Shown piece after piece: positions 3,711 to 52,030 of a stretch of DNA of 64,000 nt. Under the pieces are notes generated by a model that saw nothing but the letters and a program-made list of their open reading frames with translations, did not search any database and was not told the DNA's origin. The translations under genes and the position numbers were made by a program. Position 1 is the stretch's first letter. Every line of letters begins with the position of its first letter. Source of the stretch: Mytilus edulis (lineage: Eukaryota); the NCBI RefSeq assembly GCF_963676685.1, contig NC_092345.1, positions 80,786,001-80,850,000 on the forward strand. The letters are read 5' to 3'.

Positions 3711-3923
3711 GATGTCATATTTTGGAAGTAGACTAAAGTATTGGTTCACTCGTGGGGTCTTTGTATCGGAAATGAAAAGTTATTTAGTCTCAAACTAGTT
3801 TGAATGATACGGCTTATGTTCTTGTTGTATATTTTATGGTGGGTATGATAATAAAGCCCTAGCGGAAAGGATTGTGCTTGATTTTAATATCAAGATGAAT
3901 CTTTCAAGCAGTTTAAAAAGTCT

Positions 3924-28018: not shown

Positions 28019-29019
28019 CGAACAAAAAATTCTCTGAAACTGATATTATCAAGATGCTTGATTTCTTGATTGACAACATATTTGTTACGTTCGGAGGACG
28101 TACAGTTTTTCAACAGACTGTCGGCATTCCAATTTGAACAAACTGTGCCCCTCTACTTGCCGACTTGTTTCTTTATTATTATGAGGCTGACTTCATGCAG
28201 GAACTTCTTAGGAAGAAAGATAAGAAGTTAGCAATATCCTTTAACTCTACTTTTCGCTATATAGATGATGTTCTTTCACTAAATAATTCAAAATTTGGTG
28301 ACTATGTGGAATGCATCTATCCAATCGAGCTAGAGATAAAGGATACTACAGATACAGTTAAGTCGGCCTCATATCTTGACTTACATCTAGAAATTGACAA
28401 TGAGGGTCGGTTGAAAACAAAACTTTACGACAAAAGAGATGATTTCAGCTTTCCAATTGTGAACTTTCCATTTCTAAGTAGCAACATTCCAGCAGCACCT
28501 GCATACGGGGTATATATCTCCCAATTGATACGATATTCCCGTGCTTGTATTTCCTATCATGATTTTTTTGATAGAGGGTTGCTGCTCACAAGGACCAAGA
28601 GTTCCAAATGGTGAAGTTGAAATCATCCCTTCGTAAATTTTACGGACGCAATCACGAGTTGGTTGAACGTTATGGAATAACCGTTTCACAAATGATATCG
28701 GATATGTTCCGTACGTCGTAACTACAATCCCCTTCCCTTTCATGAATGTGACCTACCAAATTAGAATATTTACCGGATTTGTTATCACATAAGCAACACG
28801 ACGGGTGCCGCATGTGGAGCAGGATCTGCTTACCCTTCCGGAGCACCTGAGATCACCCCTAGTTTTTTGGTGGGATTCGTGTTGTTTATTCTTTAGTTTT
28901 CTATGTTGTGTCGTGTGTGCTGTTGTTTGTTTGTCTTTTTCATTTTTAGCCATGGCGATGTCAGTTTGTTTTAGATTTATGAGTTTGACTGTCCCTTTGG
29001 TATCTTTCGTCCCTCTTTT
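28019..29019 (+). mobile_element. 5'-truncated, disrupted Penelope-like retroelement (RT fragment plus 3' end)
   Basis: GIPI*TNCAPLLADLFLYYYE, FRYIDDVL, ASYLDL, KLYDKRDDF; stop and frameshifts; absent from the matching site in copy 1 (~10576). Confidence 0.8.
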
Positions 29020-30698
29020 GAAGATTGTTAACAACACATTAAAACAATTCTAAACAATCGGCAACTTTAATACAAACAAGCTGAAACTTATACTATAATT
29101 GTAACATGATATTAATTTTCTACATAAGGAAATGCCTCTACTAAGTCAGGAATATGACAGTTGTTTTCCATCGATTGATGTTTTTGAGATTTTGATTTAG
29201 CCATTAGATAAAGGATTTTGCTCTTTTACTTTTTAAAATTAGCCAAATCAATACTGTGTGTTTGCCTTTGTACTCAGATATATCGTCATGCACACAATTC
29301 AAGAAACCAAGAGGAAAACAAAATTTGATCTTGGTAAAACATGCTGCATATTATAAAAGTAACTGGGATAAGAAAATGAAGTAAGGTGGACAACTTAAGT
29401 CTTTTTTGTTAAAATATTGGTTGTGAGCAAGGTTTTAAAATTGTTTTCCCAAAGTGGTATTACCTATTATCCTCATAATGCACAACTTATTTCAGCTAGC
29501 TAACTCAAAGGGGCATAAGCTGTCGAATTCATCTTCACCGATTTGATTCAAATTTTCAGGTCTGATTTATAACATAGTAACGTATATTTTATTACAAAAA
29601 AAAAAATAAACCATTACTAATACATAAACTCGATACCAATTATCAGCATTTTTTGTGTAATTTGTCTAGACGTAATTTAAGTATCCATCGAAATGACCTT
29701 CAAAGACTGTTGACGGTCATTTTACATGAATATACATATATAAAAAGCGGCCGCGGGCAATGGGATTTTTCTAGGTCTATTTGGTTTCATATTGTAGGTT
29801 CAAAGGTATATTTATCATCAATCTTAATGTATAAGAATTTGTTTGTCGTGGATAAAATCAGTAAACTAAGTCTTTCATCCTTCTTTCACTTTCAATGTTC
29901 ACATGCATTTCCTTTCAAAGGCTGAATCAATGCATAACCCATCTCTAGCTGAGGGGTTAAATTGAAGGTCACATGAATACGGATTCAATAAATTCGAATA
30001 AATCACTTGCAAGTGAATAATTCATCAGCGATGTTTCTTAGTTTATTTTGAGAAAATTGACCCAAAATGTCTACAAAAAGCGAATGATTAATAAATCATT
30101 TCACGTACTTTTATGATCGAACAAAAAAAAACTTGTTTTATTCATTTTTTTTATGGTCAAAGAAGTATTTGATGTATAATGCTATCTTGTAACAGAATTT
30201 TTTTTAAATTCTAAATTGTATAAGTTTATTTAACAATTTTTTCTTTACAGATTTGCGTACTTCTAATCCAAATGTATGTGTTCCTCACACTGAAATAGAA
30301 AAAATTGCAAAAGACGCTGGGTTAGAATATTATGAGACCAGTGCACTAATACAAGATGGTTTGAAACATTGTTTTGATAGCGCAGTAAGTTGGCATATGT
30401 AATAAGTTTTATATCTTTATTATTTTTTTCTATATATAGGTGACCTTAAATTGATATGTTGATTTTAAAAAGATAATTATCATATTAAAAAATCTTAAAC
30501 TACCTCTTATGGCGAACGAACAAAATATTGTAACAAAATTTGACAAAAACTAATACAACTTAAGTATATTTTTTTTTCTCCACCAGATTCGATGTGGATT
30601 AGCGGGAAGCCGAAAAAAGACAAAATCTAAATCGCCATTTTGAATTTTCAAGAAGAAGAAACCAGATGATCCCATCCCTCCAGTGATGCCTCCAGCTG

Positions 30699-31250
30699 GT
30701 AAGTCAGATAAACTTATATCCCTGTTAATGCTTTCGATAGACAAGCTAAATGATTGTATATTCCAAATGATGCTCGTTAATGCTTTCGATAGACAAGGTA
30801 AATGATCGTTAACCCCATTTATGCTATCGATAGGCAAGCTAAATGATCGTATATCCCCATTTAATGCTATCGATAGGCAGTCTTAATATCGTATATCCCC
30901 ATTAATGCATATGTATAGGTAGTCTAAATGATCGCATATCCCACTGATTCTATAGATAGGCATGCTAAATGACCGTATATCCCAATTAATACTATGGCCA
31001 GGCTAAATGATCGTATATCCCGATAGATGCTATGGATAGAAAGCTTAATGATCGTATATCCCCATTAATGCTGTCGATAGGCAAGCTAAATGATAGTATA
31101 TCCCCAATGATGCTATCGATGGGCAAGCTTAATGATAGTTTTTTTTCCAATGATGTTATCGATCGGCAAGCTAAAGGATTGTATATCCCTATTAATGCTA
31201 TCGATAGGCAAGTCAGATGATCCTATATCCCCATTGATGCTATCGGTATC
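30699..31250. repeat. Same 42-bp minisatellite in the duplicate (~13 units)
   Basis: Same unit, shorter array. Confidence 0.9.
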
Positions 31251-34200
31251 TATAGTTGAGACGTTAAGGGCTTACGATACAGTTTTGATCCCGTATTTAC
31301 ATTTTGATAAAAAAAAATCCATATAGACAATTTTTTACCTGATTAAATCAAATATGTAATAAAAAATATACCTTCATGTGCTACTTTTTGAGTAAAATGA
31401 GGTCGAAATTTGGATTTGTGGCCGCAAACTACTGTTTGAAAAATAATTTTTTGCTGTATATTTATCAGATTTGAAAAAATTGCACTATTGACGTTTTCAT
31501 GAAAATTGGCACACATAATCTTCTCACGTAATCAAATCAAACCAAATGACATTTTAAAAAAGAGGGGTCTTTGAACTCGTTTTCAAGTTAAATGAGTTGG
31601 AGTGATAAAATTCATTCGAAAACTGCATCTTTTCCCGATAAGTCATAGTTTGACGTTGCGAAAATAACAATTTACGTTGGCAACGTCATAACCTCCCCTG
31701 TAACTGTATCGTATGCCCTTAATTGCATCAATACCGTATAAGCAATCAGTCCACACTAATAAATGGCTTTTCTATAACATCATAACAGTTAAGTTATATA
31801 AAATTTATATTCTTTGACTAGACAGGTAAATACTATTCCGATAAAAACTACAAATTGTTTTCTCATATTTTACAATAGTCTAAAATAAGGACAGCATATT
31901 GACAAAACGTAAAAAAAAATGCGTGTCAGACGTAACAGACTATACGCATAATAACTTTAGCAGGGGTGTTTGTGATCTTCAACACAGTGTTTTATCCGCG
32001 AAAATTTGAATGAATGATATGCTTTATATATAAAGTATTGAAATATTACTGAATATGCGTTCCTGTAACTACCAGCGCTATTTTTTTTTGGCAAAAACAA
32101 ATAGTGTACATTATTGTCAGATTTATAAAAATGTTAAATTATCAAAATTTATAGGTTTTAAAACATAAGATTATATGAAATTTCGTTTCTGTAAATTATG
32201 CTCACAAAAGTACATAGATAGACCATATCAAAATCGAATTTTAGCAGCACTCAAACCACATATAAAAATGTATGGCTTCTTGCAAATGTCTTGCAAGATG
32301 TCCAATGTCGGAATTCGCCGCTTTTTATAAATAAACTGTCATTTGCGACGTTATTTATTGAAATTTTAGAATTGTTGCATCCTAAATCGAGTGCTCTTCC
32401 ATAATTGTACTTTAACTCTACAAAACTCTACAAAACAGCTTCATACTTTCTGATACTTTGCGTAGTCAAAACGACTTCGTTTTCAAAGAAATTAAATGTC
32501 TTGCAAGTTTGTCCACTGGACGTTTTTCATACGTTTCATCAACGTTGTCGATTCGGGGACGCTTTGGAAATCCTCTGTTTATATTTCATCAGATAGAATT
32601 TTATTGATAGTCAGATACTATATCAACAATACCACAAAGTATAAAAAAAATTGATGACTGGGGTTGTTCGATTAAATGAAGTTGTAAAAAGGTTGTGTAT
32701 TACGAGAGGATAAACAATCATCTTTTTTCAAATTTTCAAACTTGGGAAGCGTAAAACTGTATTTTTTTTTATTTCTCTGCAATAAGATTCATATGTCTAG
32801 AACTTGAAACTGAAAATGAAATTGGGCCTGAAGCGTGAATGTATACCTTTCCATATCAAACAAAGCTTGTAAATATATGAGATGAATTTCTTAATTATAA
32901 TTGTTACGTTATTAAAGAAAATAACGTGAATTTTATGAGCAAGACCCGTTTAACTTGTTATTCACGACAAACTTTTTTTAATTAAAGCAAAATATATATC
33001 TTCTTTCGGATCTAAATGGGAAAACATTGCATTTTATTACGCTTTATGTAAATGAGTCTTTGGTAGAGAATTGTCTCATTGGCACTCATCATACCGTATA
33101 ATTCACATACATCTTCTTATTTCATATAGACGTATGTATTACCCAAATACGATATATTTTGTTGTTTGTTGCTTACGTTACTTTCAGTGGGAAATATTTC
33201 ATGCATATTCAGTACAGCCAAACATTAAGAAGTATCCATATTGATGTGCAACACAAAAATTTGAAGCGAAATAAAAAAAATATCCCCACTAATCATTTAT
33301 TGCCGTAAAACGTAAAAAATTGACGTTACCGTTTGAGACGCAATATCGTGCGTAACGTCTGCCAGTGTTTTCCACATTCCCTCACCAGAAATGACAGATG
33401 ACCCACTCTTTCCTCCTATATGATGTCATCTCGGTAGGTGAGACTGATTATCCATCATACCCTTCCCAGTCAGATGAAATCACATCCGAATGGAGCCTCC
33501 ATCATACTATTATTACGCTTTTGAAAAGGATAAACTTAAATCAAATTCATTCAAAATATATTTTATTAAGGCACAGATAGATCTTTTTTTTTTTATCAAA
33601 ATAATAGCAAAAATAAAAAAGATTAGTAATTAAACAGAAGAAATATAGTTGAACATAGTTTTGATCAATTTCCATTTTGTTAATTGACTGTGTAATGTGC
33701 TTTTTATTAGATACTTTTCTCCTTTGCTGACTTATGTATTTTGTATTTTTATTTTAAATCATTAATAATAAGTTTGGTCTATATTTAATCTCTTCATTGA
33801 AGGAAAGGCTCCTTGGATAGAAATAGAAACTTCGACATTTGCAGAAGATTGGCAGAAGATGTTAGAGGATCCTAAATTTTCCGATGTTACTTTTTTATTG
33901 GAAGACGGGCAACAAAAACTTCAGGCACATAAATTAGTTTTATGCTCTGCATCCAAATACTTTTGTCAAATCTTGGGATTGCCAAATAGCAAAACTGTAA
34001 GTGTATATAAAGATATTGCTAATAAAATAGAGGATGTCCATTGGGAAAGTGTCGAAGAGGCAACAACCTGACCAAAGAGTAAAAAAATAGTCGAAGGCCA
34101 CCAATGGGTCTTCAACCCAACGAGAAGATCAGTTTCACTCATTTTTTAATGAAATAAATACAGCAATACAGCAATATGTAAAAAGTGATTCCAGCTGAGA

Positions 34201-35629
34201 AATTATCAGATATATAACGATTCTTGGTTCAGATTCAACTAATAATTTTGGGATCTCTTATGTATACTTTATTCTCTGATATATACATTATATCAACTTT
34301 TCTGCATACCTGCAATTTTGATAGAGTGGGGTGCTCATTTTCACCGGGGACACAATTTCGCCGTTTAAGGATTTTGATGTGTAAAAACTTCAAAGGATGG
34401 CTGAAATGGAAGAAATGTACCCGTAGATTATATTTTTATAACAAATATAATATTTTTTTAAACTGAGACAAAATTGCGGCTCCTACCGAAAATGACCGAA
34501 AAACGGACAACGATTTTCGGACAATTTCCTGAATAAAAAACACGATTTCAAAGAAGTATTTCTAAGTAAATATTTGAGCTTAAGTATATTTTGCATTTGC
34601 AGTTATCTTCATATAGAAATATCAGTACACTTCAAAAACATTTAGGCCTGAACATAAACTGTAGAAAACATGGAAAGATGTGGCGAAAATGAGCACCCCA
34701 CTCTACTGTTCATTACTAAATTTTATGCTATATTAGCATTGGATTGACATATTAAAATATGATTATGGGAACAAATCAAAACAGCATTTGCATGCTTCTG
34801 ATTTTCGTTTTTTAGAATCAACTTAGCAATATTGACAATAAACAAATATCACTTGAAGAGTTAAACTCTGGTAGAATAGAAGGCATTGCAGCAGTATATC
34901 TATCCGAAGAAAAGTACAAGGCAACGATAACAACAGTCGAAATAAGCGCAAATATTACTGCTAAAACATTTGCACGGGTGCTAGAATTCATTTACACAGG
35001 TAAATAAAGTACAATTTAACGTATTAAGTTTCCAAATTATAACCATGTTTTGTGCTACCGTATTTTCTTGGGAAATGAGAAACCAGCTAACATTTATGTT
35101 TAAACTTCATAAAGACATAAAGAAACACAACAGTTTGATATTCGATAATACCTGAAGATAGTAATGCAACAATCCAGATTTGGATGGAGAGTCAGTGTCT
35201 CATAGGCACCCTTATACCACATCGTCTAATATTTATGTGTGTGTTATTTACAAATTAAATAAATCTATCTAAACTGGCTCCCGCCAAATCCAACACATTT
35301 AGTAATGCATTTTATTATTGTATGTTCTCGTGGTAAACCTACATTTATACCGGACAGTATAGTACGTGTTTTCCTTTCCTATTGGTTTATTTCATTTCAA
35401 TATAAATAAATTAGGTGTATTTAATTTTTAACTCTTCACATTTAACATAATCCGCTTCGCAGATTATTCAATGTGAAGAGTCAAAAATTAATTTTATGGT
35501 TCAATAAATTCAAAATAAATAACAGCCATTCATTAAAATGATAAATGTTTACGTACAATATAAAGTTAAATAAACTCATCATAGATACCAGGACTAAATT
35601 TTGTATATACGTCAGACGCGCGTTTCGTC

Positions 35630-35842
35630 TGTTGTAAAGGTGCAATAATTCGATATACCTTTCCTAATATAAGATGTCGTCTAGGTAGAATACACTGTTA
35701 GGGCAGGAATCCCAGGGCTGGAGTTCACCACAACTGGGTCGTCTGAGCTCCGGATATATTCTGCGAGGTTGCGCAGTAAATACTAACTGAAGTTCCGGTA
35801 TCTAATCCGGTTATGGCAATAACTTTCCGGACCTTTACTACA
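35630..35842 (-). repeat. 3' LTR (213 bp)
   Basis: TGTTGTAAAGGT...ACCTTTACTACA terminal inverted repeat; adjacent to the PPT. Confidence 0.95.
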
Positions 35843-35851
35843 TTCCTCCCT
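35843..35851 (-). promoter_or_regulatory. Polypurine tract
   Basis: Minus strand AGGGAGGAA immediately before the 3' LTR. Confidence 0.8.
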
Positions 35852-35992
35852 GTTTTATTAAACTGTCAGCCATCAATGCTAACACTAACAACGATATACT
35901 AAAATCCGCCACCGAACAGAAAACAACTTCATAACTGTCAATCAATCAATAATCAGGTTAAAAGCATATATACAAATCCCCTCCTCCTGCAT

Positions 35993-37459
35993 TTAATCTA
36001 TATTATACAATTGTCTGGCGTTCCGAGTTGTCACCCTAGCTATTTCCTCGGAGCGTACGTCGAACATGGATGCGAGCTTCCAGATGATTTCCTTAAGTAG
36101 TTCAGGAGATGCCTCGTGGTGTCCTTGAGGTTTGAGATAAGGTGAGTCGGTCTCCAAAACTAGATCCTCCAACTTCATCTCACAAACGGTTGCTCTATAA
36201 CCTGGGTACTTGTTATCCATGAGTAGGAATGGGGAGATACCAAATTTACAGTTTGGAAACATGGTTTTACATTGCCTGTACTCCTCCGTGTCACCGTTAA
36301 AACAATGCCAATGTATTGGATGGTCCTCCTCTAGGAAATTGGTTAATGAATCCCTGCACATATTCATTATTTTCTTGTCTCCCCTGCAATGAATCACCAC
36401 AGGAAGATGTTGCCTTTTAGCTATTCTCAACTGCTCCTCGAATACATGGACCTGTTTCTTAAGTTCTTTGCTATTTGGTTTATCAGAGGAGTCTAACCCA
36501 CATTCCCCAACTGCAATCATTTTGTTCACACAGATTAGCATCTCTAAATCTGTAATCCACGAATTCAGGACACTCATCTCCTCCCCTTTCACTATCCGTG
36601 GATGTATTCCAGCAGTACTTCTTATTCGTCGATCTCTCCTAATCTCTCCCATTTCGTCTATTGTTGGCCAGCGTCTTGGGAATGCATAGTTTGCTACCAG
36701 ATGTCTTATTTGGTATACTGACTCTCCATCTTTCCATTTATAGATCGGTAAGCCAGAAAATCTGGCTTGTTGTTTCATCTTATCCAAATGGAAATGAGAA
36801 TCAGTAACCATAATAGCCTTTTGAATACTGCATTGATAAAGGGATATTTCCTTTTCAAATGTAATAAGGTTTTCTGCATCTTCAGTTCCTTTAAATAATA
36901 AAGCCAAAATTTTCCAATGTATCAAAGAATATATTGCAGATGGAGGAAATACAGCATGAACGACCTCCACATCAAATCTGTTTTTCTTATTGTAGAAATT
37001 TAGTAAGGGTATATCTGTCCAATGGAATACAGCTGATTGACATTGTTTAAAGACAGCTTCTGTTCGTACAAATTCCACCAGATGATCAAGGGTCTTTTTG
37101 TCATAGCGCTGGCAAAGTTCCAATAGGAGACCATTCATCAATTCTGTCCATACTGACTGGCATTCTTCTTTGAATATATTATCAGCAATATTGCATTTGT
37201 GGAGTTCAAGGCAATGATTTTCTAACATTTTGTTTTGACCAAATTGTTTATGGCAAGTCCAACATGCAGTTAGTGGATTAGTGTACCAGGGCAAATGTTG
37301 GTGAAATACATGCCTTCTTACATTAGTGAAACGTCCTGGACATACCGGACAAAGTCTTGCCTTACTCAGATTCCTGCTACTGCCTTTTATCCTTGCCTCT
37401 TCCTCCAATCTTTCAGGGATTTCACCATCAAATGGACCATAATCAAGCTCATCATCCAT
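35993..37459 (-). CDS. tatD: Retrotransposon ORF3: two C2H2 zinc fingers plus TatD-family DNase (488 aa)
   Basis: CPVC..HVFHQH and CWTC..HCLELH; from about aa 217 the TatD motifs DSHFH, GIHP, AVGECGLD, VIHCR, HCF, LETDSPY and TTRNARQLY; intronless, inside the LTRs. Confidence 0.92.
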   Translation of the reverse strand: MDDELDYGPFDGEIPERLEEEARIKGSSRNLSKARLCPVCPGRFTNVRRHVFHQHLPWYTNPLTACWTCHKQFGQNKMLENHCLELHKCNIADNIFKEECQSVWTELMNGLLLELCQRYDKKTLDHLVEFVRTEAVFKQCQSAVFHWTDIPLLNFYNKKNRFDVEVVHAVFPPSAIYSLIHWKILALLFKGTEDAENLITFEKEISLYQCSIQKAIMVTDSHFHLDKMKQQARFSGLPIYKWKDGESVYQIRHLVANYAFPRRWPTIDEMGEIRRDRRIRSTAGIHPRIVKGEEMSVLNSWITDLEMLICVNKMIAVGECGLDSSDKPNSKELKKQVHVFEEQLRIAKRQHLPVVIHCRGDKKIMNMCRDSLTNFLEEDHPIHWHCFNGDTEEYRQCKTMFPNCKFGISPFLLMDNKYPGYRATVCEMKLEDLVLETDSPYLKPQGHHEASPELLKEIIWKLASMFDVRSEEIARVTTRNARQLYNID

Positions 37460-37526
37460 ACTTAAAATAAATTAACAAACATGTAAATATATACATAGTT
37501 ACCCTATTTACACTATTTCAAAATAT

Positions 37527-40500
37527 CTACTGTACATAATCATGTAAGTAGGATGGCATTTGTCTTTTGCGCCTACCTACTTGTCCCTGTTTGGACCCAT
37601 TATCTAATGTATCTGTATCGCGATTTATATCATCACTGTTCAGAAACAGCGAATTTTGACTCAAGTCATAAGCGAGTGTTGCGTCTAAATCGAAAGGGAT
37701 GTCAATGAGCGAATGAAGATCTTTAAGAATTATCCGTTCATTATTAGAATTGTTTGTCAGAGAATCTGACACCAAGAAGGGATCATTGTTATCTAAATCG
37801 TCAGTCAGAGATTCGGACAAAGGGTTCAAATCATTTTGAGTATTCTGATTCCCACCACTAAATAAAATATCCAGATATAAATCTTCCAGCTCCATATTAG
37901 TGTCTCGCTCCAATTTATTCTCAGCTCTTCCAAGAATATCATTTCTAAGTCTCTGTAACCATAGTGGTATTTCTCTGTCAATGCACAATTTGAGTCTATC
38001 ATGATGCACGACTTCCTCTCTTTTCCTGTCTTTAATCTTAAGCAATGCTGGAGACTTAACTTCAATAACCACATATGGACCTTTCCATGGAGCTTTTAAT
38101 TTTGGGGATATCCCTACTTTCCTGGCTGTATCTAATTTTAGTACAATATCTCCTACACAATATTTCCTAAAGTTGAGATTTAAATCATAATCTTGTTTTT
38201 GACGTTTCTGTGCAGATTTCAAATTATCTCTGGCGATATCATGAGCGTCCTCTAAAGACTTTCTTAAACTTTGAACATACTTACAAATATCTTGATCTGG
38301 AAAACGTTCCTTTATTTGTCCTAAAACTAGATCAATAGGCTGATTTACCTCTCGTCCGAAAACCATGAAATTCGGTGAAAAACCAGTCTGTCGATTCTCT
38401 GTTGCTCTGATAGCGCCTGCTAATTGTTGTAGGTGTATATCCCATCTGTTTTGAGTCTTCTTTAAGAAACAACGGATTAATTGAGTGATTATTCTGTTAT
38501 ATCTCTCTACCTGACCGTTGGAAGCAGGATGATATGCAGATGTTCTTGTCTTGGAAACTTCAAGAAGATCACACAGTTGTCTAATTACCCTTCCATCTAC
38601 ATTTTTGCCTTGATCTGTATGTAGCTCCATGGGACAACCGAATCTAGATATAGTGCTATCCATTAAAGCTTTTGCTACAACTTCAGCGTTTTGGTTTGGC
38701 AAGGGACAACATTCCAACCACTTGGTAAATTGATCTATGATGACCAGAACATACTTATTATTTTGTTTGGTGACTGGCAATGGCCCAAGTATATCCAAAT
38801 GGATACGTTCAAAAGGAACGCCCGAGTGGTACCTACCCAATTCTGCTTTGGCTCTCTTCAAGGGTTTTTTGTATCTATTGCATATCTGACATGTCGAAAC
38901 ATAAAGTTTACAGTCCATCGTCATTCCATACCAGTAAACTGTGTGTCTTAATTTTGCCAAGGTTTTGTCTTGTCCTAAATGTCCTGCTGATCGTAAATCA
39001 TGACAAAGATGAAGCATTTCCTGTCTTAATTTCCTTGGTGTTATAAACAAGAGTCTTGGTGCTACTGCATCATCCCAAAAATAGTAGAGTATACCATTTC
39101 TAAATTCAAGTTGAGATTTTGTTTGCCACAAATGCCTTACAAATGGGCTACACATCTGTAGATCTTGTTTTGAAGGGGAGAAATCAGTAGATAACCAGGC
39201 AATAACAGTACTCAGATCTATGTCATTCTTTTGTGCATCTCTCAATTCAGTTTCAGTATAAGGCTGTAACATCTTCTCTTTTGTGGATGCGACATCTTTA
39301 ATGCTTACAGCACGTACTGTTAGTGGTTTAACAAAGTCTACTTCTTCTTCAAATGTGGACCACTGATTCCGGGCTCTTGTACAGTATTTACAACCTCCAC
39401 ATGGAAGCTTATTAAGCGAAATACTTGGCAAGTACGAATTGCATTCATTAAGTGTATCTGGGATTCGGGAAAGCGCATCTGCGTTTACATGTTTTTTACC
39501 TGGTCTATGTTGAACTAACATGTTGTATTGTGATAGTTCCTCAATCCACCGAGCTAGTTGGCCTTCGATATTCTTGAAATTTAACAGCCAAGTAAGACTA
39601 TTATGATCTGTACGGACAACAAACTGGTTACCTAGCAAATAATGTCTATACTGCCTTGTAAAAGTGACAATAGCCAATAACTCCTTTCGAGTTGTGCAAT
39701 ACTTTTTCTGAGCTGGTGTTAAAACCTTACTTGAAAAACTTATAGTTCTTTCTTTTCCATCTTGTAGTTGGCTAAGTTCAGCACCAATGGTTTTGTCCGA
39801 GGCATCAGTATCGAGTATGAAGGTAGCTTCTGGATCAGGATAGGCTAAAACAGAAGAATTTACTAGTGCTGTTTTTAGTTGTTCAAAAGCATTTTCCTGT
39901 TCTTCAGTCCATACAAACTCTGATTTTTCTCCTGTTAATTTATGCAAAGACACAGCAATTTCAGCATAATTCTTTATGTGTTCCCTGTGGTAGTTTGTAA
40001 ACCCGAGAAAAGATTCAAGCTCTTTCTTTTTCTTTGGTCTTGGCCAACTTTTTACAGTTTGCATATTCTCCGGATTTACCGAAATACCATCTTTGTTTAC
40101 AATTTTTCCCAAAAACTTGACTTCTTTTTGAAATAAGAAGCATTTGGACGGTTTAAGTTTTAAATTGTAGTACTGAAATCTTTTTAAGATGTGTAGAAGC
40201 TTACTCAAATGATCTTCAAAGCTGTGACCTAAAACGATGACATCATCCAAATATGCAAGGCATTCTCTCCATGTCAGACCTTTCAAAACCAACTGAATGA
40301 CTCGGCTGAAAGTTGCTGGTGAGTTACATAATCCAAACGGCAGTCGGACATGCTCAAAAAGTCCATATTTCGTGACAAAAGCTGTTTTATGTCGATCCTT
40401 CTCATCGATCTCTATTTGCCAATACCCTGCAGCCATGTCCAACGTACTCATGTAGGCGCTTCCTCTCAAAGTATCCATACAAGACTCAATCTTTGGCAAA

Positions 40501-42053
40501 GGAAAAACGTCCTTAGTTGTCACTTTATTAAGGGGACGAAAATCAATGCAGTACCGCAGACTGCCGTCCTTCTTTCTTACTAAAACAGGACAGGAACACC
40601 AATCTGAAATAGAAGGTTTAATAACCCCCTTATCCAACATTTGATTAAGATGTTTTTCTTCTTCATTTTCAAATTTCAGTGGAGTTCTACGCATTTGTTG
40701 TTTAATAGCAGCTGCTTCCCCTGTGTGAATTCGGTGTTTAATATCCCCATTAAACAATCCTAGATCCATGTCTCCTTTAGCAAAAATATTTTGAAATTCA
40801 ATGAGTACTTCAGCAATCTTTATGCTACGATCTATGTCAAAATATTCTACTGTTCGAGTATACAAATCTTTCAGGTGTTCTGGAATCTTAGAATTGAGTT
40901 CTTTTAATTTGTTAAGTTTATTTACAGAATCTCCATCTTTTATTACAGTACGAATTTTTTTTGACGGGTTGACAGAAAATCTGTCACCTTTGGGCGGTTT
41001 GACAGAAAATCTGTCACCTTGGGGCGGGCTGACAGAAAATCTGTCACTTTGAGGCGGACTAACAGAAAATCTGTCACCTTGGGGTGGACCAGCAGAAACC
41101 CTGTCACCTACATGTACCTTTTCCAATGTCTCAAAATTACCAAATGGCGAACTGACAGAGAATCTGTCACTTACGTTTTCTGATGTTTCACATGAATATG
41201 GATTATCGACATTGACAGAAACTCTGTCACTATGTACCTCGGGGTCTTCAGCCAAATCATCCTGATCAGTTACAACATTGTATATCTCCATACCAATACC
41301 AAATTTATGACCCCCTTTCAATGTGATAAAAGTGTCTGTGTCGTTTCGAAATACAGCCTTCACGGTTTCATTCTTAGCAATTAAAGCATTTGGGGACAAA
41401 AGACCTTTTAAATTGGATTTCGGCTGAATGATTATATCATCTGCTGGGGTGTGATCAATTTCCATATCAACTATTTTTAAGCTATGAGGTGGCACAACTG
41501 TTTTCTTCTTTATACTAATCCTGTATAAATTTATTTCTTCTCCCTCGTTCCCAACCAAACATACTGCTGGTATAGCCTCATTGTTTATGTGGACAGTGTA
41601 GTTTGCCATATCAATAACTGCTCCAAATTTCTCCAAGAAATCAATACCCAGAATGATGTTATCATTTATGTTAGCAGTTACAAACCTCCATTTTGATTTT
41701 AACTTTCCTATTTCGATAGGTATCTCCTCTGTATATCTAGCATCAATCTTAGAATTCCTTCCAGCTCCTCGCAAAACTAAATGTTCCTTTAGTTTAATTG
41801 TTGACTGAAAAAGTGGTAAAATTGAAGTACTCAAAACAGATATTTGAGCAGCACTATCTATTACAGCCTTAAATGTTTTCCCTAAAACTTTCATCTCAAT
41901 GAACAAGGTTTTTGATTTTTTGTTTTTATCAAATGAAAAAATTTCTTGAATCGAAAACTTTTGTTCTTGCCCAGACATTTCTGTTGGCGGTTGGCCTGTA
42001 TCATCTGAAAAGGTCAAGGATTGGCCTACATCCTTGGCCCTGAGTCGTTTAAA
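37527..42053 (-). CDS. pol: Pol (protease, RT, RNase H, integrase), expressed by -1 frameshift from gag
   Basis: AVIDSAA protease; LRYCIDFRPLN, LPFGLCNSPATF and YLDD in RT; LDTDAS..TDHNSL..NADALSR RNase H; H-H-C-C, DILGP, TDQG, NGQVER and WKGPY in integrase. No internal stops; frame is open back to the slippery site. Confidence 0.96.
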   Translation of the reverse strand, partial: FKRLRAKDVGQSLTFSDDTGQPPTEMSGQEQKFSIQEIFSFDKNKKSKTLFIEMKVLGKTFKAVIDSAAQISVLSTSILPLFQSTIKLKEHLVLRGAGRNSKIDARYTEEIPIEIGKLKSKWRFVTANINDNIILGIDFLEKFGAVIDMANYTVHINNEAIPAVCLVGNEGEEINLYRISIKKKTVVPPHSLKIVDMEIDHTPADDIIIQPKSNLKGLLSPNALIAKNETVKAVFRNDTDTFITLKGGHKFGIGMEIYNVVTDQDDLAEDPEVHSDRVSVNVDNPYSCETSENVSDRFSVSSPFGNFETLEKVHVGDRVSAGPPQGDRFSVSPPQSDRFSVSPPQGDRFSVKPPKGDRFSVNPSKKIRTVIKDGDSVNKLNKLKELNSKIPEHLKDLYTRTVEYFDIDRSIKIAEVLIEFQNIFAKGDMDLGLFNGDIKHRIHTGEAAAIKQQMRRTPLKFENEEEKHLNQMLDKGVIKPSISDWCSCPVLVRKKDGSLRYCIDFRPLNKVTTKDVFPLPKIESCMDTLRGSAYMSTLDMAAGYWQIEIDEKDRHKTAFVTKYGLFEHVRLPFGLCNSPATFSRVIQLVLKGLTWRECLAYLDDVIVLGHSFEDHLSKLLHILKRFQYYNLKLKPSKCFLFQKEVKFLGKIVNKDGISVNPENMQTVKSWPRPKKKKELESFLGFTNYHREHIKNYAEIAVSLHKLTGEKSEFVWTEEQENAFEQLKTALVNSSVLAYPDPEATFILDTDASDKTIGAELSQLQDGKERTISFSSKVLTPAQKKYCTTRKELLAIVTFTRQYRHYLLGNQFVVRTDHNSLTWLLNFKNIEGQLARWIEELSQYNMLVQHRPGKKHVNADALSRIPDTLNECNSYLPSISLNKLPCGGCKYCTRARNQWSTFEEEVDFVKPLTVRAVSIKDVASTKEKMLQPYTETELRDAQKNDIDLSTVIAWLSTDFSPSKQDLQMCSPFVRHLWQTKSQLEFRNGILYYFWDDAVAPRLLFITPRKLRQEMLHLCHDLRSAGHLGQDKTLAKLRHTVYWYGMTMDCKLYVSTCQICNRYKKPLKRAKAELGRYHSGVPFERIHLDILGPLPVTKQNNKYVLVIIDQFTKWLECCPLPNQNAEVVAKALMDSTISRFGCPMELHTDQGKNVDGRVIRQLCDLLEVSKTRTSAYHPASNGQVERYNRIITQLIRCFLKKTQNRWDIHLQQLAGAIRATENRQTGFSPNFMVFGREVNQPIDLVLGQIKERFPDQDICKYVQSLRKSLEDAHDIARDNLKSAQKRQKQDYDLNLNFRKYCVGDIVLKLDTARKVGISPKLKAPWKGPYVVIEVKSPALLKIKDRKREEVVHHDRLKLCIDREIPLWLQRLRNDILGRAENKLERDTNMELEDLYLDILFSGGNQNTQNDLNPLSESLTDDLDNNDPFLVSDSLTNNSNNERIILKDLHSLIDIPFDLDATLAYDLSQNSLFLNSDDINRDTDTLDNGSKQGQVGRRKRQMPSYLHDYVQ
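40968..41230 (-). repeat. 30-bp in-frame tandem repeat inside pol (GDRFSVSPPQ), ~5 tandem plus 2 dispersed copies
   Basis: gacagaaaatctgtcacctt at 30-bp spacing. Confidence 0.9.
42011..42053 (-). promoter_or_regulatory. -1 ribosomal frameshift signal
   Basis: T TTA AAC heptamer in the gag frame (42053-42047), 6-nt spacer, stem-loop GGGCCAAGGAT-gtaggcca-ATCCTTGACCT; pol is in the -1 frame. Confidence 0.85.
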
Positions 42054-43588
42054 GCTTTTGGTGATGGAGATCTATTATTACGATAGGGAGAACTGTTTCT
42101 TGGCTTCTTGCAATCCCTACTAAAATGACCTTCTTCCCCGCAATTATAGCAGTTACCTCTTGCAGGACTATTGTACCTTCTTTGTGGCGAAAAAGCTCGA
42201 TCTGTTCTCTGTGGTGACCTTGACCTCATATTCTGACTTACTATGCTCAATACTTTTTTTACCATAATCTTCGTTTCTAATAAATCATCTTCTGTCTTCT
42301 GTAATCTTTTCTCGAACACATTTATCTTATTTGCTCCTTCTTCAGACTTCATAATTGCACGTACATTTTGTACTGATGTTTCCTGTGTATCCTCATTTTC
42401 ATCATTTTGCTCCATAAAAGAAACCCTTTTAATTTCTGCTCTTCGTGTACCCATTATGACTTTTTGATTCGCCACTGCACTTCGTACATATTGTACCGCT
42501 TGATCCAGAGCATCTGGATTTTTGTCCATAGCAGTCAAAGCTGCACGCTTGTCTACACAACCTTTAAGAAAAGCATCTGTTGCCAAAGTTTGTACGAAAT
42601 TATCCGGGGTATCCGGGTAGCCATCGGTAGCCAGCTCCTGTGCTCTTTCTGCAAATTCCTCTAACGATTCCTCTTGCTCTTGTTTAAGATCTTGCAAAAG
42701 TCTTCTGACAATGTGTGGTGGTTCCTTTCTACCAAAACGCTCTTCCATTTTTTTACATAAGCTTTCATAATTAGTTTGTACGAACTTTGGTCTCGAGCTA
42801 TAAAATTTCAAAGCTTTATCTCGCAAACATTCAATCAATTTATACAACCTTTGCTCACTCTGCCACTTGCATCTATCAGCTATAGTGCTAAATTGTAGAT
42901 AATAAGGACGCCAGTCATTTCTGCCATCATATGTTGACATCTTTGGTGCTGTGGGACCACCATACTCTGCGTGTTTATGATCATTAGCATTATATTTTCC
43001 TTTCAATAGTTGAACAGGACTACTCTTTTCCTCTTTTTCGGCTATTACTTTTTCTACTTTAAGCAAAGTTTCTTTCTGCTGTAGTTGAGTCTGAATTTTC
43101 TTTGAATATTCATGTATATCTTTAATCTCTTCATTCTGTGATTTAATCATTTCTTTCATTTGTTCAATTTGTTCCTGTTTCTGTTTTGTATAAACGTCTC
43201 TTTGTTGTTCAAACATAAGCCTCTGTTCTTCTATATGTGCTTTACTCTGTTCAGAAATTTTCTCTATTTTTGTTTGAAAAGTCTCTGCCATATCATCTCT
43301 GGATTTTTCTACCAACAAAATCTTATGACGTAATGACTCAATGGTGTTTTTCAGGACCTCTTGACCTTCATCAGACTCCTCTGGGTCCTCAAAACAAATT
43401 ATTTTCTCATTCAACAGTGCAGTCCACAATGATTGTGGTGCTTCTGGAATCTCCTTTAAATTATCTAAATTAAGTAATCCATCTTCTTCTCTCTTTGCAA
43501 TTATTGCTAAGGCTCTAGTTTCACCTATCTTTTTAATCGCTTTTAACTGTGTAAAGTTAGCTTTGTTTATATTAATAGGTTTCGCCAT
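42026..43588 (-). CDS. gag: Gag (520 aa from first ATG): N-terminal HhH domain, coiled coil, capsid-like region, CCHC knuckle
   Basis: The ORF track start at 43603 is TTG; first ATG is 43588. PKMSTYDGRNDW...LQDLKQEQEESLEEFAER capsid-like segment; CYNCGEEGHFSRDC; RS/SP-rich tail. Confidence 0.92.
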   Translation of the reverse strand: MAKPININKANFTQLKAIKKIGETRALAIIAKREEDGLLNLDNLKEIPEAPQSLWTALLNEKIICFEDPEESDEGQEVLKNTIESLRHKILLVEKSRDDMAETFQTKIEKISEQSKAHIEEQRLMFEQQRDVYTKQKQEQIEQMKEMIKSQNEEIKDIHEYSKKIQTQLQQKETLLKVEKVIAEKEEKSSPVQLLKGKYNANDHKHAEYGGPTAPKMSTYDGRNDWRPYYLQFSTIADRCKWQSEQRLYKLIECLRDKALKFYSSRPKFVQTNYESLCKKMEERFGRKEPPHIVRRLLQDLKQEQEESLEEFAERAQELATDGYPDTPDNFVQTLATDAFLKGCVDKRAALTAMDKNPDALDQAVQYVRSAVANQKVIMGTRRAEIKRVSFMEQNDENEDTQETSVQNVRAIMKSEEGANKINVFEKRLQKTEDDLLETKIMVKKVLSIVSQNMRSRSPQRTDRAFSPQRRYNSPARGNCYNCGEEGHFSRDCKKPRNSSPYRNNRSPSPKALNDSGPRM

Positions 43589-43663: not shown

Positions 43664-43887
43664 TGTCAGTAACACTGACACAATAATATAAATATGCAGT
43701 TTATTATTTACTGAATAACAATGTAGCGGCTTGTCAGTAACACTGACACAATAATATAAATATGCAGTTTATTATTTACTGAATAACAATGTAGCGGATT
43801 GTCAGTAACACTGACACTGATTTATAACTATGCGATAATTTTTCAGTGATTAGCCGTATTGCGGAGTGTCAGTAAAACTGACACCAG
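43664..43887. repeat. 68-bp-period repeat with TGTCAGT-n3-ACTGACA hairpins in the element's 5' leader
   Basis: Hairpins start at 43664, 43732, 43800 and 43867. Confidence 0.85.
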
Positions 43888-44135: not shown

Positions 44136-44148
44136 ACTTCTGACACCA
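44136..44148 (-). promoter_or_regulatory. Primer binding site (tRNA-Leu)
   Basis: Minus strand TGGTGTCAGAAGT, 1 nt inside the 5' LTR; complementary to the ...ACUUCUGACACCA 3' end of eukaryotic tRNA-Leu. Confidence 0.85.
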
Positions 44149-44149
44149 A

Positions 44150-44354
44150 TGTTGTAATAATTCGATATACCTTTCCTAATATAAGATGTCGTCTAGGTAG
44201 AATACACTGTTAGGGCAGGAATCCCAGGGCTGGAGTTCACCACAACTGGGTCGTCTGAGCTCCGGATATATTCTGCGAGGTTGCGCAGTAAATACTAACT
44301 GAAGTTCCGGTATCTAATCCGGTTATGGCAATAACTTTCCGGACCTTTACTACA
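44150..44354 (-). repeat. 5' LTR (205 bp)
   Basis: Identical by eye to 35630-35842 except for an 8-bp deletion near the PBS-proximal end. Confidence 0.95.
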
Positions 44355-47300
44355 CGTCTACAAAAGACTCATCAGTGACGCTCGAATCCAAAAAAGTTAA
44401 AAAGGCCAAATAAAGTACGAAGTTGAAGAGCATTGAGGACCAAAATTCCTAAAAGTTTTGCCAAATCCAGCTATTAATTGTAAACAGTTAATTTATAAAT
44501 ATAATCATATCAATGATAATTCATGTCAGCACAAAAATGACTTTACAACTTTTAGAATATAAAAGGGAAAATAACAAAAATATCGAACTCCGAGGAAAAT
44601 TCAAAACAGAAAGTTCATAATCAAAAGGCAAAATCAAAAGCTCAAAACACATCAAACAAATGTTATAATTGATTAAATCATAAATTTTAAAAGTCATATA
44701 TTTTTTATCGAATTCTTTTAAGACATATATTTCATTGGATTGTTTTTATTAATATTTAGGTGTTCCAAGGATTCCAGAAATTCATGAAGATTTGTCAGAA
44801 GTACAGGAACTATGCCGAGTTGCAAAAATATTCAATCTTTCCATGCTGGAAACCATTTGCAGAAACATTGAGAACGAAGAGGACTTTCTGAATCCGAGTA
44901 TTGGTACTTATCTCAACGACGAGACTGGAAAAGAAATGAAAACCTTGTTTTTTAATAAACCATCATGCTGTGACGTTATCTTTAGAGTCGAAGGTAAATC
45001 TAATGTATATTATGATTTTTTAAACAGGTTTCGAAGTGACAATTAACCTTCTTTACTAACTAATGTCTTATAATAAAGAGACAATTCACACTAGTTTAGA
45101 AAAAAAATAGCCATCGAATTAGTGATTTGAACTATGCATTATGTTAATATGCAAGATGTGCATGCATGTATGTTACATTTTAGATTCGAAATAAAGGTTC
45201 ATTCATTTTAAGTATGAACGGCAATAAATGCTCAATGTGGTGTACTATGTATTATAAATTATCTCTTTAAATATGAAGGGTATCAGAAGTGTGCACATTT
45301 TATTATTTAATGAATAGCTATTATCTATTTTGAATTTATTAAACCATAAAACTAATCTTTGACTCTTCACATTGAATAATCCGCGAAGCGGATTATGTAA
45401 AATATGAAGAGTCAAAAATTAGTTTTATGATTCAATAAAATCAAAATAGATAATAGCCATTCATTATAAATAAATTTCTATCAAAAATAAGGCTCAAGGA
45501 ACATTTTATATTATTTATATTAACAATAACAACGTACACACATGTTGGCGTATGAATACACAGAGGGGGCGTGTCACCATCAAAATTGACAACATTGAAA
45601 ATAAAACTAATAATTTTAACCAATCAGAAGACAGTAAATATACCAAATTTATTTATACCTAAATAAGGTTATATATTAAAGTTGTTGTATTGTCTGAAAA
45701 CCATGTGTATATTGTAGATCAGAGTATCTATGCCAATAAAGTGGTTCTATGTGCCAGATGTCCTGTGATGGCAGCTATGTTTAGTGGGAAATTTGTGGAA
45801 AGTGACAATGAAATATTAACAGAGGTAATTCAATTTGAAATTCTTTATTTTTTCATATATATCAGTGAACAAAGTCAGCGAATTGATCATAACATAGAAC
45901 AAATAGGAAAAACTATTAAATTATTCAATGAAAAACATTTATTTGCACTACGAGCGAGTATTTATTAGATAAATTGAGTCAAAAAGCGAGAAAATATTGA
46001 ATTGTTGATGACTTACGAAGGGAAAAAATTTATTATGCGGAAAATGATGACAACACGGCACTCAATTTCGAAGATGAAGATCGAAAGTATTCATATATCT
46101 GCGACGGAATTAAAAAAAATATCTCCTAAGTGTTCTTGCATTTATTTTTCATGTATTCCTGTCATTATAGCGCAATTTAAACATTGCCATTAAGCGCGAT
46201 GTTTTGCTAGACACACAAAGAGGTTCAACCTACCCATGTGAGCTTATGCCATCACTTGGCCTCCGTCGTCGACCGTCGTCGTCGTGGTCGTCGTCGTCGA
46301 CGTAAACTATTTCAAGAATCTTCTCCTCTGAAACTACTGGGCCAAATACCTTCAAACTTCAACTGAATGTTCAATATAGTATTTAATTTATAAATTGTAT
46401 CCGAACTTTTGATACATCAACAAACATGGCCACAATGGCTAGCAATATAACATAGGGGTCAAGTGCAGTTTTTGGCTTATATCTCAAACCTGAAGTATTT
46501 AATGCAAATCTGACATAGGGTTAAATGTTCAACAGGTCAAGATCTATCAGCCCTTAGATTTTTGCACGATGAGTGTCTGATTGGCAAACCTACAACATCT
46601 CCTAACTTTTAAATGGATGCATTAAATAGTAACCAATTAACAAGAGCGCTTCATGCTAACATTTCGATTTTCGATATTTCTTATATTCAGTGAAAAAAAT
46701 GTCTTAGAGAACATGTAAAATTATAGATATTGCATTTGGTAGACATGCTTTGAACTGAATTTGATTTGATTTTATTTTAGGTGAAAATACCAAACACTTC
46801 CGTGGAATGTTTTCTTGCATTGTTGGAATACATGTATACAGATCATGCTCCAATCGAAGAAACTGATTCTGTTGGCATTGTGGTATTGGCAGATGAATAT
46901 GGACAGTCTCGATTAGTTGATCTGTGTGAATTGTATATAACAAAAGAAGTTGATAAAAGTGTCACAAAACGGATTGAAAAAGCGGAGATTGATGTTATCG
47001 GTCTTCTGCTCACAGCTCAGGTAACTCTTTTATTGCTACTATTGTTATTGCTTGAAGCGACACTATAAATTCATAATTTTATCGGCATTTTTTATATTTT
47101 CCCATTTGATCTTACTGCCTTATAATTTTTAAAGATTGAGAACAAGACTGGATACCTGAAAATATTGGACAATGACGTCTTGTATAAGTGCTCAAGTCCA
47201 CCCGCATCAATTAAACATTAAAATGCATGCAACTTCAATTATACAACTGAACAACTTTACAAACGTTCCATACGCTTAAATGTAGTTTTACTTCCCATTT

Positions 47301-50300: not shown

Positions 50301-51892
50301 GTGTTCAGCCAATCAAATTCTGTGATTCTCATGATCAAATTAATAAGCCAATCAAAAACGTTTTCTCTGAAGATTATTCTAACATGCTAGATTTTGAACT
50401 TTGTTGTTTTCATCTTGTAAAATCCTGAATATGGCACAGCCGCAGGTGAATTTTCATCTGCAAAGAGGGTTCTTACACAGCTTAAGGATAAACGCATGGC
50501 TGATTGACAAAATTCAATGATGCAGTACTACAATAAAGATAATACTGAATAGTAGTTTTTCACTAATTTATTGACATAATACGTTATGTTTGTATTCAAT
50601 TAAATCATTTAAAGCACAATGTACTATTCTTTTTTTCACAAAGACCAACAAACAGGTTTGATGAAGTTGAAATCCAATCAACTTGAAACCGTAGTATTAC
50701 ACATGTGTTCCTTATGATATGATCTTTCTAATTTTTCTGCCAAATTAAAGATTTTACCTAATTTTCATGGTCCACTGAACATAGAAAATGATTGTACGGA
50801 TGGGAAATCTATGTACTTATGACTCATTCTTGTTTGAAGAAAAAAATACGTCATAACGATAATGGAACAAAGCAGGCTGGGTTAGTGGGGCTGCTTTTAT
50901 GGTAATTCAAGTTACCTTTTATTCACCTTCTTCCACCTCAGAGCTATCAGCTCTTTGATTTGTATATTTTGATTGATTTATTTTTTTCCATAAGAAGTAG
51001 AAGTTATTGTTAAGGGACCAAATGAAGCTGTGTTAAAGAACCATATTTGTGGCCTTGGACTGTTTTTTGCTCATTTGTCGGGCTGTTGTATCTTTGACGC
51101 ATTCTTCATTTTCATTCTAAATATTTTGTTGAACCCAAAAGTCAATATTCTCTTATAGGTGAAACAACTATGTACTGACCAAGTTAGAAAGGTAACAATT
51201 GTTCTATGATAACATTTTGTTATCCAATAGTTGAACATACCTTCCTATAATGAGCTTGCAACATGCACGATCACGAATTTAAAAATTAATGGTATCATGC
51301 AAACGAATCAGTAGAACTAGTTATTTCTGTTATTCTCAATTCTAACATAGCATTGTGAAGAACGGATGAAAGCTCACTCTTTTGAATCCCTTTTAAAGTT
51401 TTCTAAAGATTTTTTGTTTCAGAGTTGCATACTTTAACCGTCAAATTTATCATGCAATTTTTCATATCGCACAATAAATCAGCAACCATTTGATTCTAAG
51501 GGATGGGGACTTGCAATTTTAAAAATAAAAAGTTCCTGTCCCAATTTAGTTGGGAGTAAGCAATCTTGCATCAAAAGGATCGCTTCGCTCGCAACATTTC
51601 ACAAAATTATATTTAAAAGTTACAGATTATCAAGGTAAGTGCATCAGAAGCTAAAAATCTATAAAAAAACAATTTTGTTTTGTTTTTGAATTATCAATCA
51701 AATTTTTCCTTTTTGGGGCAATAACACACCTCTTTCCACTGACCTTTGATTAATCGATAATTTATGCTATGATATTTTTACATTTCAATAGAACCAAACT
51801 TCTAGACTTCGTTCTTGCTGATCAATTTGTTTTGGAATTGTATGTATATTCAACAAAATAGGTGCTTGTTTCATGAAAGTAAATTTACTGAA

Positions 51893-52030
51893 AAGTAAAA
51901 ACACAAAAATACTGAACTCCGAGGAAAATTCAAAAAGGAAAATCAAAAATCAAAAGGCAAAATCAAAAGTCCAAACACATCAAACGAATGGATAACAACT
52001 GTCATATTCCTGACTTGGTACAGGCAAAAA
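51893..52030. mobile_element. ~138-bp SINE-like insertion specific to the duplicate
   Basis: Absent at 26019 in copy 1; possible GAA TSD; related copies at ~18730-18830, ~44563-44660 and inverted at ~10690-10810 and ~29133-29235. Confidence 0.7.

Follow-up and report, generated by a model that had tools for sequence, protein, structure and literature searches.

A TatD-type third open reading frame, related to animal TATDN2, in an old lineage of Ty3/Gypsy retrotransposons

The third open reading frame (ORF3) of a Ty3/Gypsy retrotransposon from Mytilus edulis is an accessory gene that defines an old lineage of Ty3/Gypsy elements, and we are nearly certain that it encodes a selected accessory nuclease related to animal TATDN2. 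The element lies in the stretch of DNA analyzed here, hereafter called the window (64,000 nt; NC_092345.1, positions 80,786,001 to 80,850,000). Third ORFs of LTR retrotransposons that encode enzymes are rare and their roles have only been inferred. Enzymatic ORF3s other than env, including DEDDy exonucleases, are known already; the present analysis adds a selected, lineage-wide TatD ORF3. The age of this gene, a selection as strong as that on pol and its presence in many young insertions make it a clean case for studying the roles of accessory enzymes.

Results

Structure of the element

The element measures 8,725 bp, lies on the minus strand of the window and contains LTRs, a 4-bp target-site duplication (TSD), a primer-binding site (PBS), a polypurine tract (PPT), gag, pol and ORF3 (Table 1). 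Its paired LTRs with TG...CA ends, tRNA PBS, PPT, TSD within 4-6 bp and gene order (gag, then pol as PR-RT-RH-IN) are those of Ty3/Gypsy elements (Metaviridae). The insertion is recent, since the two LTRs display no substitution and a single 8-nt indel. The host sequence interrupted is an abundant repeat, and the TSD GACG stands on either side; in reads derived from other copies of this repeat, 35625 is joined to 44355, in agreement with a length of 8,725 nt and a TSD of 4 nt. The slippery heptamer is in the right phase in 8/8 loci examined. The tRNA-like gene matching the PBS, presumably of isotype Leu, forms a tandem array (C7:21401335-21449307) with a period of ~409 bp and 57 matches.

A sequence-only reading of this DNA had noticed an intronless ORF of 488 aa that follows pol, precedes the 3' LTR and shares the strand of gag (43588-42026) and pol, and this is borne out. 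ORF3 begins 67 nt after the pol stop (37527) and ends 136 nt before the PPT.

Table 1. Features of the element and of its ORF3, in window coordinates
Feature	Position	Strand	Remarks
TSD, 5' side (GACG on the minus strand)	44355..44358	-	empty-site joint 35625/44355
5' LTR, 205 nt, TG...CA	44150..44354	-	8 nt shorter than the 3' LTR and sister copies (213 nt)
PBS, 1 nt past the LTR	44136..44148	-	complementary to the 3' end of a tRNA-like gene
gag, 520 aa	42026..43588	-	N-terminal helix-hairpin-helix, coiled region, Retrotrans_gag, one CCHC knuckle
-1 frameshift heptamer, gag/pol overlap	42047..42053	-	predicted frameshifting
pol frame (first ATG 41978): protease, RT, RNase H, integrase	37527..42071	-	four RNase H acidic residues present
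Candidate splice acceptor: pyrimidine tract and AG one base ahead of the ORF3 ATG	37461..37480	-	putative splicing
ORF3, whole, 488 aa, intronless	35993..37459	-	reading frame, Pfam, model
Acidic N-terminal tail with conserved [LPVF]DY short motif (aa 2-8)	37436..37456	-	
Zinc finger 1 (C37, C40, H50, H55)	37295..37351	-	
Zinc finger 2 (C66, C69, H82, H87)	37199..37264	-	
Conserved all-helical domain (aa 88-203)	36851..37198	-	no clear structural match
TatD nuclease domain (aa 219-486), TATDN2-type	36002..36805	-	
PPT	35843..35856	-	
3' LTR, 213 nt	35630..35842	-	
TSD, 3' side	35626..35629	-	

Gag starts with a helix-hairpin-helix (aa 3-48, window 43588-43445; Pfam HHH_3, E 2.9e-06). This motif is also detected in L059 and, by alignment, in L018, L023, L025, L029 and L030; it is undetected in L031. 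A 30-nt tandem repeat of 4.8 copies, variable among copies of the element, lies in pol between protease and RT (40965-41109), and a 68-nt repeat in the leader (43664-43817).

Domains and fold of ORF3

The TatD domain and its metal-site motifs, already proposed in the sequence-only reading, were recovered by Pfam at aa 219-486 (TatD_DNase, PF01026; E 1.7e-43, 149 bits for a cut-off of 27). An AlphaFold2 model of ORF3 (pLDDT 93.4) shows a TIM-barrel and matches solved TatD proteins (Foldseek; best E 5e-15, TM to target 0.82). The metal-site residues H222, H224, E319, H357, H385, E436 and D438 are all present and nearly invariant in 76 homologues, and the catalytic residues are invariant in 50/50 ORF3-type rows of the tree described below. 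TatD is the sole Pfam domain found in ORF3, an RNase D-like DEDDy domain being absent. A search for longer fused forms of ORF3 gave 2 matches only, which is weak as a negative.

The two C2H2-type fingers read upstream of this domain hold in part. Both display the ligand pattern, and finger 2 is canonical in the window ORF3, but no Pfam finger match is obtained there and the spacing of finger 1 is short (CX2CX9HX4H). The four ligands of finger 1 are kept in 75-76 of 76 rows; the histidines of finger 2 vary within the family. A weak zf-C2H2 match is found in the homologue L096. The best structural match of the fingers is with those of ZNF524 and is weak (Z 4.3, rmsd 3.1, 56 aligned); for the tandem fingers, the best matches, equally weak (Z 4.3), are DNA-bound finger arrays. 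On the other hand, the stretch that had been taken for a ~130-aa linker is not one: the model and the conservation indicate instead a conserved and confidently folded helical domain, and aa 30-203 fold as a unit (pTM 0.89) made of the two zinc fingers followed by this domain. A structural search with the helical domain gave no match above Z 3.4 among 48,161 PDB representatives, none at E<=0.001 in BFVD, and unnamed clusters only in the ESM Atlas; this absence of matches does not show a new fold.

Neither a transmembrane nor a signal peptide-like stretch was detected in ORF3 (highest 19-residue hydropathy 1.33), and the Pfam search gave no env family match. Having no transmembrane stretch, ORF3 is not an envelope protein.

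ORF3 accompanies Gypsy pol throughout a lineage

There are 93 matches to ORF3 in this Mytilus genome. ORF3 was found directly behind Gypsy pol at 25/25 loci inspected (20/20 of the best other ones, 3/3 more distant and 2/2 further ones, L106 and L107), so it goes beyond a one-off capture. Together with the window, these loci represent nine families, whose ORF3s are 27-46% identical to the window ORF3. The linkage was also analyzed by coordinates from the side of the integrase, with 111 matches scored from 2,303 candidates and a chance of a TatD neighbour of 0.0002 per hit. TatD lies 1.0-2.4 kb downstream and on the same strand in 37/39 matches when the integrase is at least 52% identical; it is found downstream in 24/38 at 45-48% identity and in 2/34 at 38-44%. 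Conversely, 57 of the 69 best TatD matches in the genome were inspected: 56 are tied to pol, two of them in deleted copies, and one is a host TATDN3-like exon. TSDs of 4 bp, varied in sequence, flank 11/14 LTR pairs, and seven LTR pairs are without substitution.

A library-wide protein search with ORF3 yielded 111 representatives at E<=1e-30. The nearest named proteins are from Mytilus (96-97% identical), and named homologues come from four Mytilus species, Mizuhopecten, Crassostrea and the starfish Acanthaster, in which the gene model P0263 joins integrase, PHD and TatD. True homologues account for 27/51 motif matches in metagenomes. Pol is directly upstream in 12 of these 27, another 13 have less than 800 nt of upstream sequence, and the remaining 2 have 1.4-1.8 kb without pol. 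One of the 12 pol-linked loci (L073) is near-identical to a family of this genome and therefore not independent.

Several copies deserve separate mention. L024 (3735-9686) has matching LTRs and retains RT-RH-IN and an open ORF3, but neither gag nor protease; L024, L025 and L017 are internally deleted copies, and this family has a different PBS. In the L018-L022 family both LTRs end in TATA, not CA, and perfect 4-bp TSDs are found in 5/5 copies. The Crassostrea cluster P0040 is a 522-aa ORF3 homologue with a degenerate second finger and 153 members, many of which lie on contigs of 2-3 kb; it may have been domesticated or be expressed at a high level.

Selection and co-inheritance with pol

ORF3 is under purifying selection like pol, its dN/dS being ~0.1 and not ~1. 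The window and L010 ORF3s differ by 57 synonymous and 23 non-synonymous changes (dN/dS 0.10, p 2e-23), the corresponding ratios being 0.11 for pol and 0.06 for gag. Values of 0.04-0.13 were obtained among the L018/L020/L022 pairs, 0.23 for L023/L026 and 0.30-0.46 for pairs with decaying copies; the young pair L024/L025 gives 0.80, which is not significant with 21 changes. These data rule against cargo carried passively, that is, a host retrogene without function. Such an origin would account for the lack of introns in ORF3 while the host TATDN2 domain has at least four, but the low dN/dS of the best-sampled pairs, the invariant catalytic residues and the retention of ORF3 across such diverged families leave it next to no credit. 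Altogether, the earlier proposal of a captured and maintained accessory nuclease stands: other copies carry ORF3, it is selected, and the domain is TatD.

The integrase and TatD trees of 14 elements, two of which are near-copies, agree well (r 0.87; 8/11 splits shared), and this fits one acquisition inherited with pol. The divergence of ORF3 is ~1.8 times that of integrase.

A possible splice signal was observed at the start of ORF3. An AG-N-ATG after a pyrimidine tract is present in 8/10 families, compared with 95/2207 background ATGs (4.3%); the p-value of 5e-10 overstates independence because the families are related. Reads of four out of 24 runs were placed on the element; in the three raw RNA runs among them (6-19% of each, tissue unstated), the depth over the element was near zero and the spliced joint was not seen. 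The run X1, whose kind is guessed and which may be DNA, has an unspliced contig across the acceptor. No convincing splice donor was found in the leader, and no splice-shaped junction was seen in the gag-less copies L024 and L017.

Origin of the nuclease

In a 104-row TatD tree, the 50 ORF3-type domains, 16 of which are shown beside pol, form one clade (97/87). The 14 TATDN2 proteins, including the mussel's own intron-bearing TATDN2 (L105), form a separate clade (100/99) with no ORF3 row inside. A 99/96 branch sets apart 36 further TatDs, which are bacterial, viral, TATDN3-like or from insects. The tree excludes near-identical rows as well as one empty, one long-branch and one partial row; it comes without an AU test, its midpoint root is weak (48/72), its sampling of TATDN1/3 is thin, and four rows, one of them named Rotaria, are unplaced. 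The clade nearest to ORF3 is that of TATDN2, not bacterial TatD or TATDN1/3. If the root lies among the 36 other TatDs, ORF3 would be sister to TATDN2, with a split older than the divergence of the protostome and vertebrate orthologues sampled.

Individual residues point in the same direction. His383, just before HCF, is found in 38/50 ORF3-type and 14/14 TATDN2 domains and in 0/36 other TatDs, and an aromatic residue at 258 and Pro261 are likewise common to ORF3-type and TATDN2 domains. E319, E436 and D438 align with the GE and ETD motifs of TATDN2, the overall identity of the domains being about 31%. Judging from the tree, an early TATDN2-type gene would be the source of the nuclease, placed by fusion behind a module specific to these elements. 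Within the domain, host TATDN2 has at least four introns and ORF3 none, as expected for capture through mRNA.

Two other origins were considered and rejected. For a viral one, none of 22 TatD loci from IMG/VR has the N-terminal module or pol, all of them group with other TatDs, and the module motif has 0 matches in IMG/VR; for a bacterial one, P0060 has no relative in GTDB. Clear homologues are 3/15 of the motif matches in prokaryote collections, all on MAG contigs of 1.6-4 kb, which are probably host contamination; two further matches were scored at the motif level only. A long-branched TatD group near TATDN2 and ORF3 (P0049-P0053), with one member from the rotifer Rotaria, is devoid of the finger module.

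The N-terminal module and its partners

The finger-helical module is found in 0/119 host TATDN2 proteins. It occurs without TatD in the ORF3 of L109, which is nested among TatD-bearing elements (support 100) and has about nine copies. It is also joined to NADAR, located before or after it and with or without TatD (P0198, P0231 and L061, 357-1799), and to an SGNH/GDSL domain in one gene model that may be chimeric (P0047). The module is thus what stays constant, and TatD a frequent payload that can be dispensed with. TatD is indeed dispensable in at least this one nested family, and the nuclease is therefore not essential.

In L109, the module (ORF3, 2394-3959) is followed by a short unclassified C-terminal domain. 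Copies of this type are located at C6:36465922, C7:55261289 and C8:23360850, and some are single open frames of 2,284-2,584 aa. In L106 (3023-7000) and L109 (2-2338), as in the starfish P0263, a PHD finger follows integrase at the end of pol; in this subclade it may be a targeting domain that reads chromatin.

A short [LPVF]DY motif is present in the disordered acidic tail of 57/129 clusters (shuffles: mean 5.5, at most 13), within the first 30 aa in 52 of the 57. The longer form DY[ED][ED] is found in 28/129 clusters (shuffles: at most 5); the window copy differs, its DY being followed by G-P. The motif resembles D12-Y13-E14-D15 of UAP56, a likeness four residues long. In UAP56 this motif binds TREX-2 and LENG8-PCID2, according to the available parts of PMC13322074 and PMC12216326.

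Discussion

Comparison with known systems

The closest parallel can be drawn with Juno and Vesta, LTR retrotransposons of bdelloid rotifers whose ORF3 encodes a DEDDy-exonuclease or a GDSL protein (Rodriguez, Kenefick, Arkhipova 2017, PMC5408684); enzymatic non-env ORF3s of LTR elements are also reviewed in the accessible text of PMC6431247. In both cases an enzymatic ORF3 other than env follows pol with its catalytic residues intact, its function is inferred from sequence, a 3'-5' exonuclease is among the ORF3 types, and GDSL/SGNH occupies the same slot (P0047 here). The folds differ, however, with a TIM-barrel TatD in the mussel and a DEDDy fold in rotifers. Moreover, the Juno and Vesta ORF3s are family-specific, recent and evolving near neutrally within the genome, whereas the mussel ORF3 is one old acquisition under strong purifying selection, spread over many families and at least two phyla, with a dedicated finger-helical module.

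With animal TATDN2, ORF3 shares the HxH, GE and ETD residues and the diagnostic His before HCF. It is nevertheless outside the orthologue clade holding L105, and it is intronless, multicopy and mobile, unlike the single-copy, intron-bearing TATDN2, whose long disordered N-terminus is replaced in ORF3 by the zinc fingers and helical domain. As in env-bearing Ty3/Gypsy elements (errantiviruses; available part of PMC13524379), the third ORF follows pol and precedes the 3' LTR, and there is a splice acceptor, a candidate one here, just upstream; but ORF3 encodes no membrane fusion glycoprotein and lacks any signal peptide-like or transmembrane stretch. The mollusc Gypsy clades (C-clade, MolGy1-; Thomas-Bulle et al. 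2018, PMC6238403, accessible text) belong to the same superfamily and host phylum, and the ORF3 lineage probably corresponds to one or more of these RT-defined clades. That text has no mention of ORF3, PHD or TatD; TatD has 0 occurrences in the accessible text of PMC13524379, and no TatD-bearing LTR lineage appears in that of PMC12440569. Overall, no TatD-bearing LTR element was found in the open literature, a scope that leaves aside Repbase, GyDB, Dfam and subscription journals, and these elements may well be catalogued in Repbase/GyDB by RT alone. The one squid mention met with in this literature is a gene label in a Hox-cluster figure (PMC6962438, available part).

What could be the role of ORF3?

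We tentatively favor, without holding it to be probable, a role as a nuclear, self-targeted nuclease of RNA strands. ORF3 would be made from a spliced subgenomic RNA, as env is, a step suggested by the acceptor, and would be a free protein apart from Gag-Pol. It would act in the germ-cell nucleus as a Mg2+-dependent RNA-strand nuclease, brought by its N-terminal module to the element's own loci or transcripts. By removing R-loops or other hybrid and structured RNA there, it would sustain full-length transcription and limit both the DNA damage and the RNA-guided silencing that hybrids invite.

This proposal leans on TATDN2. In the available text of PMC10711561, the human protein degrades hairpin RNA and the RNA strand of R-loops in vitro, displays little DNase, very weak AP activity and minimal activity on plain RNA:DNA duplexes, depends on E593/E705/D707 for its R-loop RNase activity and requires its N-terminus for R-loop binding. 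Fish tatdn2 is expressed in germ cells and shields the primordial ones against R-loop damage, R-loops becoming more abundant there when it is lost (PMC12709183, accessible part). Kinship with such an R-loop RNase makes RNA the likelier substrate of ORF3. The nuclear RNA-strand reading is preferred because ORF3 keeps the TATDN2-equivalent residues and swaps the N-terminus, and because the RNase H of pol is intact; for the same reason, a replacement of RNase H by ORF3 is ruled out. The substrate is nonetheless deduced from a sister clade at ~31% identity, and the activity may have drifted. In addition, an RNase near the element's own genomic RNA could be harmful, which the mechanism leaves unexplained.

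A second hypothesis, overlapping with the preceding one and to our mind possible but rather unlikely, is that ORF3 is a counter-defence effector. It would destroy or block host silencing RNAs (piRNA/siRNA guides, antisense or nascent anchoring transcripts) or reverse host marks, the N-terminal module being a docking platform with a swappable enzyme and the target being host RNA, not the element's own hybrids. The occurrence of the same module with NADAR, with SGNH/GDSL or alone fits this hypothesis, as do the faster divergence of ORF3 relative to integrase and the conserved, UAP56-like acidic DY motif near its N-terminus. However, no positive selection was seen in the pairs tested and the element looks silent in the RNA runs examined; as to the motif, the resemblance is very short, and acidic residues do not follow it in the window. 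One could go further and imagine, in what is a doubtful extrapolation, a modular accessory protein in the style of retroviruses, encoded by an ancient Gypsy lineage of animals, which steers the nuclear fate of the element's unspliced RNA and counters germ-line silencing. This protein would combine a UAP56-like DY motif docking on RNA export/decay complexes (TREX-2, LENG8-PCID2), a finger-helical targeting module and an exchangeable enzyme, mostly a TATDN2-type RNase and in some cases NADAR or SGNH.

Unlikely in our opinion is a third role, as a helper of reverse transcription in the particle, where a 3'-5' exonuclease would trim RNA primers, template remnants and aberrant cDNA ends. This was the main idea of the sequence-only reading and has also been proposed for the rotifer DEDDy ORF3s. 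TatD proteins are 3' exonucleases on single-stranded RNA/DNA (PMC10711561, accessible text), rotifer LTR elements gained a 3'-5' exonuclease ORF3 at least twice (PMC5408684), and ORF3 is tightly co-inherited with pol. On the other hand, ORF3 is outside the Gag-Pol polyprotein, with no evident packaging route, RNase H is intact, and one nested family does without TatD. The tandem C2H2-like fingers, given their weak structural match, also point more to chromatin than to a cytoplasmic particle. While capture and maintenance are well supported, the cDNA-end and AP-site substrates suggested at first rest on bacterial TatD and TATDN1/3, and the domain groups with TATDN2.

NADAR acts on ADP-ribosylated DNA, and its fusions with the module point to repair of modified DNA. 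ORF3 could be imagined as an AP-endonuclease or 3' DNA exonuclease preparing or mending the insertion site, with the fingers choosing targets, and TATDN1/3 have such activities (summarised in the accessible part of PMC10711561). We consider this improbable: the domain is of the TATDN2 type, whose DNA activity was negligible in the same text, and the ordinary, varied 4-bp TSDs give no sign of targeting or of unusual end processing.

Implications

A TatD in the env slot suggests that these elements bring their own tool for RNA processing or for dodging host silencing. It ties retrotransposons to TATDN2, a recently characterized R-loop RNase needed in germ cells, and supplies more than 100 diverged natural variants of this enzyme as well as an unclassified folded domain. 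There is also a practical consequence. In bivalve annotations, a large number of gene models named 'tatD' or 'TATDN2' are transposon ORFs, which affects studies of gene families and of presence/absence; in symbiont MAGs, proteins of this kind probably reflect host contamination.

Surroundings of the element in the window

The element is surrounded by segmental duplications (9408-18110 with 27086-35423, and 18524-26448 with 44355-52460) in blocks that are 86-100% identical, and the other copy of the flanking duplication is without the Gypsy insertion. Tandem arrays of 42 bp occupy 9140-9650, 12460-13760 and 30659-31250. Two sets of inverted repeats (55433-55803/61189-61558 and 3919-4302/5103-5488) may be the ends of non-autonomous DNA transposons.
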